Positions 29,401 through 35,400 are shown, counted from the first letter of the stretch. The stretch is DNA of 35,545 nt from Thermoanaerobaculia bacterium (GCA_035576505.1 DATLWH010000717.1:1-35545); one strand, 5' to 3'. A program made the numbers and translations. Notes: generated from the letters alone by a model not told the origin.

Positions 29401-32400
29401 CCGCTCAGATCGGAGACGTTGCTGTGCAGCAGCGGGTGGAGGACTGCCATTGCTGGCATCATCGCGAGACTGTCTTGCCGCTCGATCCAATAGCGGTCTT
29501 TGGCGAATGGGTACACCGGAAGACTGATGCGCTGGGGTTTGACATCGCCATACAGAATGTTCCAATCGAGGTCCAACCCCTTGCTCCACAGGTCGAGAAG
29601 TTTGGGAAACTTCTTATCCGCAATCCATTGACCAATGGCTCGTTGCAGGTCGCCATCAGAAGTGAACAACGAGAGCGCGTCCTTGTTGTGTTTCGCCTGG
29701 CCCTCGTAAGCGTCTTCGATCCGCTGTTCACCGTCGAGATAGCTCTGGAGTCTTCCCGCCAGTTGTTCCACCGACGTCACAAGGAACCCTAGACGCTCAT
29801 CCAACGGCGCTCTGCAAACCTGCAATGTGTAGGCAAGCTCGGCCAGATCGGGAGCCAAAGCCGCCGTTCGGATGAACTCCAATAGATCGCGGGCCTTTTG
29901 CCGAAGCTGCTCCACGGTCCTCGCCGACAAGGGCACGATGGTCTTCGCGTCTCGCGGCAAAATAGACGCCATCCGCTTGACGCCGACCGGTTGCAGATAC
30001 TCTCCGATGACCAGATGCGCGTTCGTGCCGCTGAAGCCGAAGGAGCTGATGGCGGCCTGGCGCTTAGGCGCATCGCGCAGATCCCACTCCTGCAGACGGG
30101 TGTTGATGTAGAAGGGGCTGTCAGTCAGAGCGATGTGCTCGTTGAGCCGTTCGAAGTTGATGGTCGGCGGCAGCTGTTTGTGCTTGAGCGCCAGGAGGAT
30201 CTTGATGACTCCGGCCGCTCCCGCGGCGGTCAGGCAGTGCCCGATGTTGCTCTTGACAGACCCCAGCGCGCAGTATTCTTTGTTCTGTGTGTACTTCTTG
30301 AAGGCCTGTTTGAGACCTTCCACCTCGATCGGATCTCCCAGTTTGGTGCCCGTTCCATGCGCTTCGATCAGCTGAATCTTCGCCGGATCGATTCCGTATT
30401 TGTCGTAGACCTCCTGCTCCAGGCGTGTCTGCGATTCCGGGTTGGGCGAGGTGATACCATTCGTCCTGCCGTCCTGATTGACTCCCCATCCTTGAACGAC
30501 TCCATAGATGACGTCACGATCTCGTTCGGCGTCGGCCAACCGTTTCAAGACCACAACGCCTACGGCTTCTCCCGGCACAAACCCGTCCGCTCGTTGATCG
30601 AATGTAAAGCACCGCCCTTCGGCGGACAGCATTCCCGTCTGCGAGGTCCGGATATGCATTTCCGGGCCGGCCATCACATAAACGCCGCCCGCCAGGGCCA
30701 GATCGCTGACGCCGGAAGCGAGACTGTCACACGCCTGGGTGATCGCGACGAGGGAGGACGAGCACGCCGTGTCGATGGAAACGCACGGCCCCTGCAGGTT
30801 CAGGAAATAGGAAATTCGCGCGGCCAGAATCGACGTCGCGCTGCCCGTGAAGCCGTGCGCGCTCAACTGATGCGCTCGCGACGCCTGGTGATAGTCGCTG
30901 GCGGCACATCCTGCAAAGACGCCGCACTTGCTGCCGGACAGTATCCGCGCGTCGTATCCGGCATGTTCGATACTGTGCCAGCACGCTTGCAGAAACAACC
31001 GCTGCTGCGGATCCATGTCCTCGGCCTCGGCGGGTGAGATGTTGAAAAAGAGCGGATCAAACCGGTCGTATTCTTCGAGAGCACCAACCCATTGACTGTT
31101 GGTCTTGCCTGCCAGGGCATCGCCCGGCCGATAGTACGTATTGACATCCCACCGCTCGCGCGGGACCTGGGTGATGCAGTTTCTCCCCGCGGCGAGGTTC
31201 TGCCAGAACTCGTCGATGTTCTTCGCCTGCGGGAACTGGCCGGCCATACCGATGATGGCAATGGACTCTGTTGCATGACGTGCGGAAGCGGGCGTCATCC
31301 ATCGCCAGTCCGTTCCGCTGCGCCATGACGTGAGCTTCGTCGCCGCCTTCTTCTGCACGGGAAGGCGATTCGCTGAAACAATGTCCGTAGTTGGGCGGCC
31401 GACCGAGAGGTTTCCGCTGGTTTGGGCTTCGCCCGTTACATAGCGGCTCAGTTGCGCCAGAGTGGAATAGTTATAGACCTTGGTCGCCTCGATGGAGGTC
31501 CGATACGTTTCATTGATCTTGCGGATCCAAGTCACGCCGGCGACCGAATCGAGTCCGAGGTCGACGAACTGGGCGTTGTCATCGATGTCGCTCTCCCGCA
31601 TCTGGAGTTCATTTGCCAGGAGTGTTCTCAACGTTGCGCTGACGGCAACGAGTGTGTCCCCGTCGTCAACCAGCCGCTGCGGAGGAGCCGGAGTAGCGGT
31701 TTCGGTCTCCTCGTAAAATTTGTTGTGGATTTGCGCCAGCGTGTCGGACCGACCGACGAAGGTCTGGTCATGCATGGCTACTTCCCGCTGGTACGTCTCG
31801 TCCAGCGATTCACGCATGTACCCGGTCAACTGCTGTTTGAGGGCGATCAGCCGGCTGCGGGGTGCTTGCGCAACTCGCTGCGCCAACGCCATCGCCGCGT
31901 TAAGGAGGTCCGCACGAGGCACCACAGCAAGCCGCAGCCCACGGGCCTTGAGGATGCTGCCGGTATAGGGCTGCGCCGTGAGCAGGCTTTCCCGCGCCAG
32001 ATCCTGCCCCATCTTGGCGCCCAGGATGTACGTGGCGCCAGCGCCTGGCGTAAACCCATAGTCCATATACGGGCTGACATACCAGCTTTCCTCGCTCAAC
32101 AGCACGAGGTCGGCGAACATCCCCAGGCACCAACCGGCGCCGATGCCGTGCCCCTGCATCGCTGCGATCACAGGCAGCCTGCAGTCCAGCGCCAGCTGGA
32201 AGACCTTGGAGTCCGTGAACCTAACCTTGCCGGCCTGAATGGCCAACAAATTCTCTTTGGTGCCGCCCAGCGCAAAGTACTGATCGTACCCGGTAAGGAC
32301 GACCACCTTATAGGCCGGTGTCTGCTCGATGTGGGCAAACACTTCCGTGAGCCCCTGCACCAGCGCATCGGAAAACATATTTTTCGCTTCCCGATCCTCC

Positions 32401-35400
32401 ATCGCCACCACCACGATGCCGCCCGGATGCGCGGTGGCACTCACCACCCGCGATAGAAGGGCAATGCGTGCCGGTGCCGTCAGCTGCAGCTCAAGGGATT
32501 CGGCTTCCTGCTCCCTTACAGCAGGCAGCTTCCGAGCCATCTCCTCGAGCACTGCCGCCGTGTCCTGCTTCAAGGAGACCAACATCGGCCACGGCAGGCT
32601 CGCCCAGTGGGAGGCCACGTTGATGGCTACCGACAGGACATGGTCCTCTTCCGCAACCAGCACCGTTCCGATACGCCGCTGTAGCTCCTCACCGGAATAA
32701 TCGGCGCCGGTGAGCAGGATTTCCGCAGCGGCCTCATTGCCGAACCGATGCATGACGACAGGGGCTGCCGATTGAGAGATGTTCGCCGACGAGTACATGC
32801 CATTTCGGCTGTAAACGCAGCCATCGCAGGTCTGGGCGATGAGCCACGCATTGTCCTTCGCATTTCCCGACAGCGCCGCAACCATCGGGATCTCGGACTC
32901 GACGATCAGGCGCTGCAGATCCTTCGCCACATGATCGGCAACGGCTGCCGAAAGAAACTCCCGATTCCTACTGGCGAGCACGATCGCTTTGTAGGCGCCG
33001 CTCCGGCGAACCGCGGTGATCACGTGACCGAGATCCTTCGCCACGTCATCAGCCAGCACGTCCCCGAAGGTGATGACAAGAACGCGTTCGACGGGCGTGT
33101 CGAGTGCGATTTGAGGCGACGTCGATGCGATGGTCGTCAAGACAGGATTCGAAGGCTCTTCCGTGGCAGGCTTCACCGCCTTGAGCCGGTCAACCATGCC
33201 GGCTAGATCAGGCGTGAGATGCTGTTTCAGCAGCCGGAGCGCATTCTGTGGCTTCGCCGCCAACGTCGACGCCAACTCTCGCGCCGACACCTCCACTTGC
33301 CCGGCCGGTACGATGGGGCACGTCCATCCTTTCGCCCGAAGCTGTCGGCCCGTGGCAACGGGTAATCCATACAACAGGTCCTGTGCCGCGGCGCTCCCGA
33401 ATCGCTCGCGCAACAGCATCCCCACGGTAGCGGTCGGATAGACGTCCGTCCGCGGATCGATGGTCCCGTAGGTCCCATCCTCGTCGCACACCATGAGCTC
33501 GCAGAGCGCGGCGGCCAGCAAGCCAGCCCCGGCGACCTCGCCATGCAGCATGGCGATGATCGGATAGGGGAACGACACGATCGACGCGTAGAGTTTCTGC
33601 TCGACGGCCTCGTTGTTTTCCTCTTCTCCGCGCAACCGTCCGAGCCCGCCTAGCAGCAGGACCTTGGCTGTTGTCTCCTTCTGCACCCTGTCCAAACCCT
33701 GTAACAAGTGCCCAATCACGCCTCTTGCTGAGGCGCCGAGCTCGATCGAGAAGATGCCGTTACCCTCGTCATACAGCCGGATGCCAGCAGCGGCCGGAGA
33801 CTCCGAGCTCATCGCGGCAGCGGTAGCCAGCGTAATCGGCGACTTAATCGCCGACGGCGCCGCCGCGGAAAATGCCGCGTCCGGCGCGGCTAAAGAGATC
33901 GTTCTGCCCTGTTTCTGCTCAAAGGGCAGCCGCGCAATTTCCGGCTGCGGGACGAGCATGATTTCCTTACGCTGCGAAGGAGCCGCCGTCACCACAGCCA
34001 TCGGCTCGGCGATCTCCACCGATGCCCGACGGCAACTCACGCCCCGCACCTCCGCGGCAACATTGCCGCGCACATCGCACAGATCGATGTCAACCCTCGC
34101 GACCTCATCCACCGCCTTACTGCCCGGCGCATGACGCACCCAAGCAATCATCTCCGGGCTACAGGCCGCTGCTACGCGCAGCGCTTCGACCGACGACAGA
34201 AGTCGCTCACCGTCGGTCAATCCCCCTGCGGCCTCTAGCGCGCGATCCAGCAAGACCGGATGGAGGACATAGTCAGCCGCTGTGTTCTCCAGCGACTTCG
34301 GCAGCCGAAGGCTGGTGAGGGGCTGCTTGTCTCTTTCTAGTTGCTCGAGATTGAGAGAGGCCGGCGCGACTCGATCGGTCAACCATGCCCGACCCTGACA
34401 ATGGATGGTCTGTTCGACCCCATCATTGCTGTAGATTTCGAAGTCGATCTGGTCTTCCTTCTTTGCGAACAACGTCACATGGACCTGTTTGCCATCATGG
34501 ACAACGGCCGGCTCTCCCAGCGTGACGTCGCGCAATTCCACGGACATTGCCTGCCCGACGCCCGTCGCCTCCTGCACGGCGGCCCGTGCCATTTCCAGAT
34601 ACGCCGCAGCAGTGACCACCCTGCGGCCATCAGCGGGGTCACCGCTCAGGAAGAGCTCCTCGCCCGTCAATGTCGCGCTATAGCTTTGCTGGCGCAGGTC
34701 CGACGTATTGCTGTGCAGCAAGGGATGCAGGAACGAGGTGGTTGTACGTTTTCCGGCAATCTGCGCCGCGGCATCGAGGTCAATCCAGTAGCGCTCTTTC
34801 GCGAAGGGGTAGGTGGGAAGACTGACGCGCTGCGGCTGACTCTCGCCGTACAGCTTGTTCCAATCAATCTCCACCCCCTTGACCCACAGCTCCATCACCC
34901 TCGCCACTTTTCCCTTGACGATCCACTGATCGACCATCTTCTGCAGATCGGTGTCGCTGCTGAACATCGACAGCGATTGCTTGTCGCGCTTTACCTGTCC
35001 TTGAAATGTGTCTTCGATCTCCTCCTCGCCAGCCACATACGCCTGAAGCTTTTTCGCGAGTTGTGCGGCCGTGCTCACGACGAAGCCGACCCGCTCGTCC
35101 ATCGCTTCGCGGCCGGTTTGGAGCGTATAGGCCACTGCAGCGAGCTCGAGGGTATCCAGCCGGGGCTGCATGAAATCCAGCAGATCGCGCACCTTCTGGA
35201 GCAGTTGCTCTGCTGTCCTCGCCGAGAGCACGATCGCCAGATTGACAGACGAAGCCGGATGGTGGGCAAGTTGCGGATATTCCTCGACGATCACATGCGC
35301 ATTGGATCCGCCTGCACCGAACGATGAGATTCCGGCGATCCGCGGAACCTTCCGCCCATCGATGACCGGCTGTTCCCACGCCCTCAGCGATTGATTGACA

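Follow-up and report, generated by a model that had tools for sequence, protein, structure and literature searches.

Three in-line crotonase domains with a single intact ECH2 may form a covalent pseudo-trimer in a trans-AT polyketide synthase of a Thermoanaerobaculia bacterium

A 35,545-nucleotide stretch of DNA from a Thermoanaerobaculia bacterium (GCA_035576505.1, DATLWH010000717.1:1-35545; here called the window) encodes a giant polyketide synthase (PKS) of the trans-acyltransferase (trans-AT) type, in which three crotonase-fold domains (d1, d2 and d3) follow one another on one chain. We propose, at a probability of roughly one half, that this tri-crotonase unit is a covalent pseudo-heterotrimer made of one live ECH2 decarboxylase (ECH, enoyl-CoA hydratase) and two dead ECH2 paralogues, that it represents a widespread and so far unrecognized module type, and that it reconciles a trimeric enzyme with an assembly line that is dimeric. 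The same arrangement may set the geometry of decarboxylation in cis and, through it, the regiochemistry. The unit probably forms the center of an in-line β-branching module with the order [KS]-DH*-ψECH-ψECH-ECH2-ACP(W), in which KS is a ketosynthase, DH* a degenerate dehydratase-like domain, ψECH a degenerate ECH and ACP(W) an acyl carrier protein flagged by a tryptophan.

All three crotonase domains lie on the minus strand, and residues are counted from the GTG at position 35492. When each segment was scanned alone, d1 (aa 571-767; 33192..33782) matched the Pfam family PF00378 (ECH_1) with 59.2 bits (E 5e-16), d2 (aa 795-988; 32529..33110) with 46.7 bits (E 3.4e-12) and d3 (aa 1017-1265; 31698..32444) with 164.3 bits (E 4e-48), all above the gathering score of 27. 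AlphaFold2 predicted three β-β-α crotonase cores at exactly these residues. The first-pass annotation, which was made from the sequence alone, had postulated three crotonase-fold domains with very similar limits, and the motifs quoted in it (AMLHGEVAGAGLLAAALCE, ALSGNAKDNAWLIAQTCD, AAMQGHGIGAGWCLG and SPYMDYGFTPGAGATYILG) are all present. Its statement that only the third domain is ECH2-competent was also borne out. With 284 bits, d3 is the only one of the three domains above the cut-off of 215 bits of the NCBIfam model NF005496 (PksI-type). In sequence comparisons it reached 245 bits with PksI and 193 bits with the ECH2 domain of CurF, and Foldseek superposed it on PksI and CurF with TM scores of 0.89-0.92. 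The catalytic histidine of ECH2 enzymes corresponds to H230 in PksI and H240 in CurF (residue roles according to PMC7501309). In d3 it is represented by His1241 (nt 31770-31772), located in the motif AMHDQTF that aligned with MMHEKTF of PksI and conserved in 100% of 57 aligned sequences. The oxyanion-hole residues G1076/G1077 and G1118/G1120 belong to the loops FALGG and GHGIGAG, both of which are invariant in the same alignment and resemble the reference loops of the ECH2 type, FASGG and GHGIGGG. Judged by its sequence, d3 is an intact in-line ECH2 decarboxylase and the only competent domain of the three.

The two upstream domains are degenerate copies of the same enzyme type. NF005496 was the best NCBIfam model for d1 and d2 as well, at 86 and 63.9 bits, respectively, both below its cut-off, and their best matches in the PDB were CurF ECH2 and PksI. 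Both domains still contain the core of the crotonase fold and the first helices of the C-terminal part, among them a conserved LLKQHL helix common with CurF, and end near residue 213 of the CurF chain; nothing but the lid helix with the catalytic histidine is lost from this part. Furthermore, both show a deletion of about nine residues after the first oxyanion strand. As described in the first-pass annotation, d1 keeps a partial glycine loop (GEVAGAG), while the corresponding loop of d2 is replaced by GNAKDNAW. In the window's d1 the first oxyanion strand is three residues shorter, and RGE stands in place of GGR. A conserved polar active-site residue was found in neither d1 nor d2 in the alignment of 57 sequences.

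An ECH1 identity of d1 or d2 was considered and rejected on the basis of motifs and profile scores. The ECH1 of the PksH type carries the catalytic motifs FGAD(68)F and LSE(137)LLFG (residue roles according to PMC7501309), and these D68 and E137 motifs are absent from all three domains of the window; at the position equivalent to E137, d1 has an aspartate in 31 of 57 sequences (54%). Hidden Markov models (HMMs) for ECH1 and ECH2 were built locally from free-standing genes adjoining the gene for 3-hydroxy-3-methylglutaryl (HMG) synthase (HMGS) in other genomes, the ECH1 model from 26 genes carrying both PksH motifs (VFCFGADF and FSLSELLFGL). The ECH1 model gave 14 bits for d1, no match for d2 and 20.5 bits for d3, and the ECH2 model 51 bits for d1 and 45.7 bits for d2. 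Family medians for the ECH1 and ECH2 models, respectively, were 16 and 77 bits for d1, about 0 and 50 bits for d2, and 15 and 288 bits for d3. Since the ECH1 scores remained at background and the ECH2 scores lay well above it, d1 and d2 are ECH2-derived paralogues and not in-line ECH1 enzymes.

The tri-domain of 713 aa was predicted by AlphaFold2 with a pLDDT (mean per-residue confidence) of 86.2 and a pTM (predicted TM score) of 0.88, and the tri-domain of a 49%-identical homologue with values of 85.5 and 0.88. Because a chain of three mobile domains could not reach a pTM of 0.88, the models point to three folds locked together as one rigid, three-lobed body. Foldseek searches against the PDB returned hundreds of crotonase matches, the top alignments covering d3 only and on single chains. 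PksH, PksI and CurF are trimers, a state that is obligatory for free ECH1 and ECH2 enzymes. Taken together with the predicted packing, this makes an intramolecular pseudo-trimer the most likely geometry, which would give one active site, that of d3, per PKS chain; the ring geometry and the scaffold role of d1 and d2 are inferred. Among the roles proposed for the extra domains in the first-pass annotation, the evidence favors that of a scaffold, while a new activity such as isomerization found no support in the sequence.

A different kind of support function would be that of a docking platform, on which d1 and d2 recruit HMGS, ECH1 or the donor ACP, or position the acceptor ACP, without any mimicry of a trimer. 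The two domains are conserved and under selection, yet devoid of catalytic residues; the module must attract several enzymes acting in trans, and the DH*-ψECH-ψECH-ECH2-ACP-KS block is inherited as a unit. Nothing speaks directly for docking, however. The pTM of 0.88 describes d1 and d2 as locked to d3 and not as free, and the literature credits the recognition by HMGS to the Trp-flagged ACP itself. We consider docking as the sole purpose of d1 and d2 unlikely; such a role could coexist with the pseudo-trimer.

The tri-crotonase unit is not confined to the window. A search with the d3 alignment retrieved 66 loci among the species representatives of GTDB, which were then scanned with HMMs of d1, d2 and d3. 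Almost all loci with enough upstream DNA contained the three domains in this order and in one reading frame. The 56 complete units had total lengths of 639-743 aa, and not one of them contained a stop codon or frameshift. Their hosts belong to about seven phyla, including Acidobacteriota, Bacteroidota (Fulvivirga, Chitinophaga, Aquimarina, Sporocytophaga), Gammaproteobacteria (Aliikangiella, Steroidobacter, Thermomonas), Planctomycetota, Verrucomicrobia and Fibrobacteres, and many assembly lines contain two triple modules. A HMMER search of 1.84 billion representatives with the d1-d2 profile found about 200 proteins (50%-identity clusters) at E<=1e-30, mostly PKSs of several thousand residues that spanned the whole profile. 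The triple, initially regarded as unusual, is thus present in at least 56 modules across many phyla. In one locus (L001, ENA contig_103491) two triple modules are located about 10 kb apart, and the PKS gene upstream encodes AprA-like loading-module domains (AprA_N, WHD_AprA and methyltransferases). The fragmented gene calls in L001 and L002 probably stem from frameshifts in the assembly. Searches for homologous proteins gave about 20-30 matches, which were fragmentary and bore no informative names. Three assembly-fragmented homologues (P0002, P0010 and P0017) were considered as natural splits of the triple and rejected, since the PKS genes on their contigs are broken up into many short neighboring calls, as is typical of frameshift errors.

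Orthologous domains shared 40-57% identity for d1, 32-55% for d2 and 57-77% for d3, compared with 22-30% between paralogous domains, and 36, 16 and 97 positions, respectively, were at least 90% conserved. Pairwise dN/dS was 0.29 for d1, 0.32 for d2 and 0.15 for d3, values that are rough given a dS of about 1.1, near saturation. A dN/dS of about 0.3, the recurrence of 56 stop-free in-frame units in several phyla and the conserved length indicate that d1 and d2, although dead, are maintained by purifying selection and do not decay. The same data make it very improbable that d1 and d2 are neutral, decaying leftovers of a tandem duplication without function. The loss of catalytic motifs and the existence of some relatives without d2 would be expected of such remnants, but these would hardly keep an orthologous identity of 32-57% and confidently predicted folds.

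Within the proposed pathway, the upstream KS would leave a β-keto thioester on the Trp-flagged ACP, where it would be retained because the module lacks a ketoreductase (KR) and its DH is dead. HMGS, together with a donor ACP and a decarboxylating KS that would both be encoded off the contig, would add acetate to yield HMG-ACP, which a free-standing PksH-type ECH1 would dehydrate. The resulting 3-methylglutaconyl-ACP would be decarboxylated in cis by d3 by means of His1241 and the two glycine loops of the oxyanion hole, and the branched chain would be accepted by a dedicated downstream KS. Domains d1 and d2 are ancient ECH2 duplicates that lost the lid helix with its histidine and, in the case of d2, also the oxyanion loop. 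The pseudo-trimer would copy the homotrimer of free ECH2 enzymes and thereby avoid a clash between trimer and dimer symmetry in the dimeric synthase. Concerning the regiochemistry of the branch, we lean towards an exomethylene group by analogy with known in-line ECH2 modules.

The domains around the crotonase folds are consistent with this scheme, and the first-pass proposal of a β-branching module acting in cis held up: the three crotonase folds are preceded by a KS and a dead DH and followed by the Trp-flagged ACP, a domain scan detected no KR in the module, and HMGS is encoded in the cluster. The designation as module 1 had to be dropped, as the gene is cut by the contig end and starts in the middle of a KS, so that the module is merely the first one visible. 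The C-terminal part of this upstream KS, with an SNIGH... motif, and the KS-flanking linker occupy 35025..35545 on the minus strand (KAsynt_C_assoc and RhiE-like linker matches). The DH-like domain (aa 256-494; 34011..34727, minus strand) matched PKS_DH_N with 74 bits and PS-DH with 42 bits. As noted before, it is degenerate: the catalytic histidine is replaced, with DP in its place (FLSGDPADG), in comparison with FLAGHEVTADG in the active DH of the next module. In most relatives the DH upstream of the triple likewise lacks the HxxxGxxxxP motif.

The putative acceptor of the β-branch is the ACP at aa 1287-1352 (31437..31634, minus strand; PP-binding, 50.5 bits). Its motif GLDSVAGVTW contains Ser1316 (nt 31545-31547) and Trp1322 (nt 31527-31529) and fits DSxxxxxW, a β-branching flag as quoted in the sesbanimide preprint. 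It is the only one of seven carrier domains in the window with a tryptophan at Ser+6, as the first-pass annotation had noted; the other six have L, L, L, I, F and L. The top PDB matches of the ACP were the mupirocin MmpA ACP3a/b didomain (2L22), the CurA ACP (2LIU) and the PksL ACP (5ENY), all β-branching ACPs in which the tryptophan aligned. In the window a single ACP stands ahead of the next KS; the relatives have one, two or three in this place, which read LDSIxGVTW[IV]. Several Bacteroidota (L051, L057, L060, L047, L050 and L068; Fulvivirga, Chitinophaga, Aquimarina) have post-triple ACPs with a phenylalanine at Ser+6 (LDSIxGVTFI). Of the two ACPs present in each of L037, L032 and L042, the first carries a leucine and the second a tryptophan.

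The downstream KS (aa 1409-1781; 30150..31268, minus strand) belongs to a tightly conserved clade that is always found behind a tri-crotonase unit. It shares 70-88% identity with most of 39 post-triple KSs across phyla, three outliers showing about 54%, and 41-52% with the other KSs of the window. Its best single-KS match in the PDB was the PksL KS behind the Trp-flagged branching ACPs of bacillaene, and it is 63% identical to the KS following an ECH pair in Nostoc. These likenesses support a β-branched substrate, be it exo or endo. In the outlier loci (L025, L030 and the second unit of L016) the ACPs read LDSISA[AVT]T[WF][MV]; these units may represent a second module subtype with a different branch.

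The HMGS/HCS homologue of the cluster (419 aa; 10213..11472, minus strand) matched HMG_CoA_synt_N and HMG_CoA_synt_C and reached 232.8 bits with TIGR01835. Its gene has a PKS gene on either side, with a 4-nt overlap at the stop of the giant open reading frame (ORF) (window positions 11469-11472; 8555-8558 in L071). A donor ACP, a KS0, an ECH1 or an ECH2 was found neither beside HMGS in the window nor in the acidobacterial HMGS loci L072-L095; the acidobacterial loci covered about 10 kb on either side of triples and HMGS genes, within very large clusters. In the majority of the other phyla, ECH1 and ECH2 come next after HMGS. A triple and an HMGS-ECH1(-ECH2) cassette were located on the same contig in Fulvivirga imtechensis, Aliikangiella coralliicola, Steroidobacter, Peristeroidobacter, Sporocytophaga and a Pseudomonadota metagenome-assembled genome (MAG), and in the five genera named here the free-standing ECH1 on the triple contigs shows the D68 and E137 motifs of PksH. 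Aquimarina atlantica has HMGS-ECH1 without an adjacent free ECH2, plus a triple. Moreover, many HMGS-ECH1(-ECH2) cassettes were recovered among at least 120 matches to a degenerate DNA pattern of the ECH1 motif ELLFGLMP. The co-occurrence of HMGS-ECH1 with the triple fits a dehydration in trans followed by a decarboxylation in cis.

The missing ECH1 gene also bears on a competing interpretation, according to which d1, perhaps together with d2, keeps a ligand-binding or catalytic role, either as an in-cis dehydratase replacing ECH1 or as an isomerase or gate that decides between exomethylene and endo-methyl. Neither the window nor the fetched acidobacterial loci contained an ECH1. Domain d1 is under purifying selection, and most of its 57 aligned sequences have glycine-rich loops at both oxyanion positions (G621 in 44, G622 in 40, R623 in 48, G655 in 56, G657 in 47). 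In published systems, the combination of a truncated ECH with an ECH2 correlates mostly, not always, with an exomethylene product. Against this stand the scores of d1 and d2 with the ECH1 model, which are no higher than that of the true ECH2 d3, the lack of conservation at the positions equivalent to D68 and E137 of PksH, the missing lid helix with the ECH2 histidine, and the three-residue deletion with RGE for GGR in the d1 of the window. None of the 16 conserved positions of d2 falls within an active-site motif, and in clusters of other phyla a free ECH1 accompanies the triple. A ligand-binding or catalytic role of d1 or d2 is unlikely.

Several points weigh against the pseudo-trimer itself. 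Both AlphaFold2 models were built on the same shallow alignment of 30 sequences, and a pTM of 0.88 describes a fixed arrangement and does not show the ring of a crotonase trimer. Most members of the d1 family keep conserved FxxGGR and GDAxGAGF loops, and given these loops d1 could still bind an acyl thioester. In some close relatives (L006 and L028, and the second units of L029 and L036), d1 is joined straight to d3 without d2, and characterized pathways work with one or two crotonase folds; because of both, a full pseudo-trimer cannot be obligatory. The near-saturated dS limits what the selection estimates can carry. Finally, ECH1, donor ACP and KS0 are encoded neither in the 35.6-kb contig nor in any fetched acidobacterial locus, and the supply of ECH1 in trans would have to be deduced for this cluster by analogy with other phyla. 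The units in which d1 is joined to d3, among them L028 with a gap of only about 94 nt, are natural two-domain variants of the same family.

The window represents nearly all of a metagenomic contig of 35,623 bp (ENA ERZ27256710 k141_656425) and contains four genes on the minus strand: the giant trans-AT PKS, the HMGS homologue, a second PKS and a nonribosomal peptide synthetase (NRPS). For its parts, the nearest relatives are acidobacterial MAGs, for example of Thermoanaerobaculia, Blastocatellia and Ca. Angelobacter. The giant ORF extends from 11469 to the window end, encodes at least 8,025 aa without AT domains and opens inside a KS (SNIGHCESAAGIAG...), its frame remaining open up to the window edge. 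A recent module duplication within this ORF was considered and rejected, as the modules are only about 50% identical. At its 3' end (window positions 11472-14255, aa ~7080-8007) a KS-DH is followed by no carrier domain, and the next PKS, past the HMGS gene, begins with another KS, giving a split or bimodule arrangement broken by the HMGS gene. This second PKS (2,687 aa; 1963..10026) ends in a carrier domain (~2200-2420) that shows GLPS instead of the usual GxDS at the phosphopantetheine serine (FNLGLPSLAIAFL) and a weak PP-binding score of 29 bits. The NRPS gene (1-1970) runs off the window start and encodes first a TubC-like docking sequence, then a C domain (HHIIFDG) and finally the initial part of an A domain. 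In view of this downstream NRPS gene, the cluster product is a PKS-NRPS hybrid.

Comparison with known systems places the triple in a wider context. Known from the literature are modules in which a truncated and presumably inactive ECH immediately precedes an in-line ECH2 and a free-standing ECH1 acts in trans, an arrangement mostly linked to exomethylene groups. Examples are ECHa-ECHb of LasH/LasO in the lasonolide pathway, the CR-CR pairs of pederin, onnamide and psymberin, and the 'tandem ECH' of SbnO in the sesbanimide pathway. These pairs and the window have in common a shortened ECH directly upstream of a competent ECH2 and one or more Trp-flagged ACPs behind it. In contrast to the lasonolide- and pederin-type pairs, the window contains two dead domains, belonging to the distinct orthologous lineages d1 and d2, instead of one; moreover, a dead DH precedes its crotonase domains, and a single ACP follows in place of tandem Trp-flagged ACPs. 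Descriptions of ECH pairs, and of no triple ECH, were found in the literature, nor was a triple found in any characterized pathway, MIBiG not having been screened. Published antiSMASH-based annotations of related modules show only one or two ECH domains.

The HMMs of d1, d2 and d3 also detected ECH pairs on plasmids of Nostoc, Ensifer and Burkholderia sp. FERM BP-3421, the spliceostatin producer. The degenerate domain of these pairs scored best with the d1 model and is closer to d1 than to d2. Single in-line ECH2 domains were observed in Eleftheria and Photobacterium. In the kalimantacin, oocydin, phormidolide and leptolyngbyalide systems, an embedded modular ECH2 (mECH) is thought to out-compete the ECH2 acting in trans, and the alternative branch that results is usually an exomethylene. 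Like these systems, several clusters with triples encode a free ECH1+ECH2 pair adjoining HMGS.

The findings touch on two open puzzles, namely how trimeric crotonases are accommodated inside dimeric PKS modules and why an 'inactive' ECH persists beside an in-line ECH2. A rigidly packed, conserved tri-domain would be a concrete structural answer, which can be tested. With about 713 aa, it would also provide an excisable, self-contained decarboxylase unit for the engineering of β-branches. Orphan clusters of Acidobacteriota, Bacteroidota and Gammaproteobacteria contain triple modules in abundance. Because published annotations of related modules show one or two ECH domains only, profiles specific for d1 and d2 would improve module calls and product prediction.

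With PksH-type ECH1 (3HP0) the domains of the window share the crotonase fold and the pathway, but not the D68 and E137 motifs. Domain d3 resembles PksI and CurF ECH2 in sequence, fold, catalytic histidine and oxyanion glycines. PksI (4Q1G) and CurF ECH2 (2Q2X) are homotrimers with three active sites, whereas the window combines three different folds on one chain with one intact site. The triple is a variant of the published pairs of a truncated ECH and an ECH2, and one that is common in orphan clusters.

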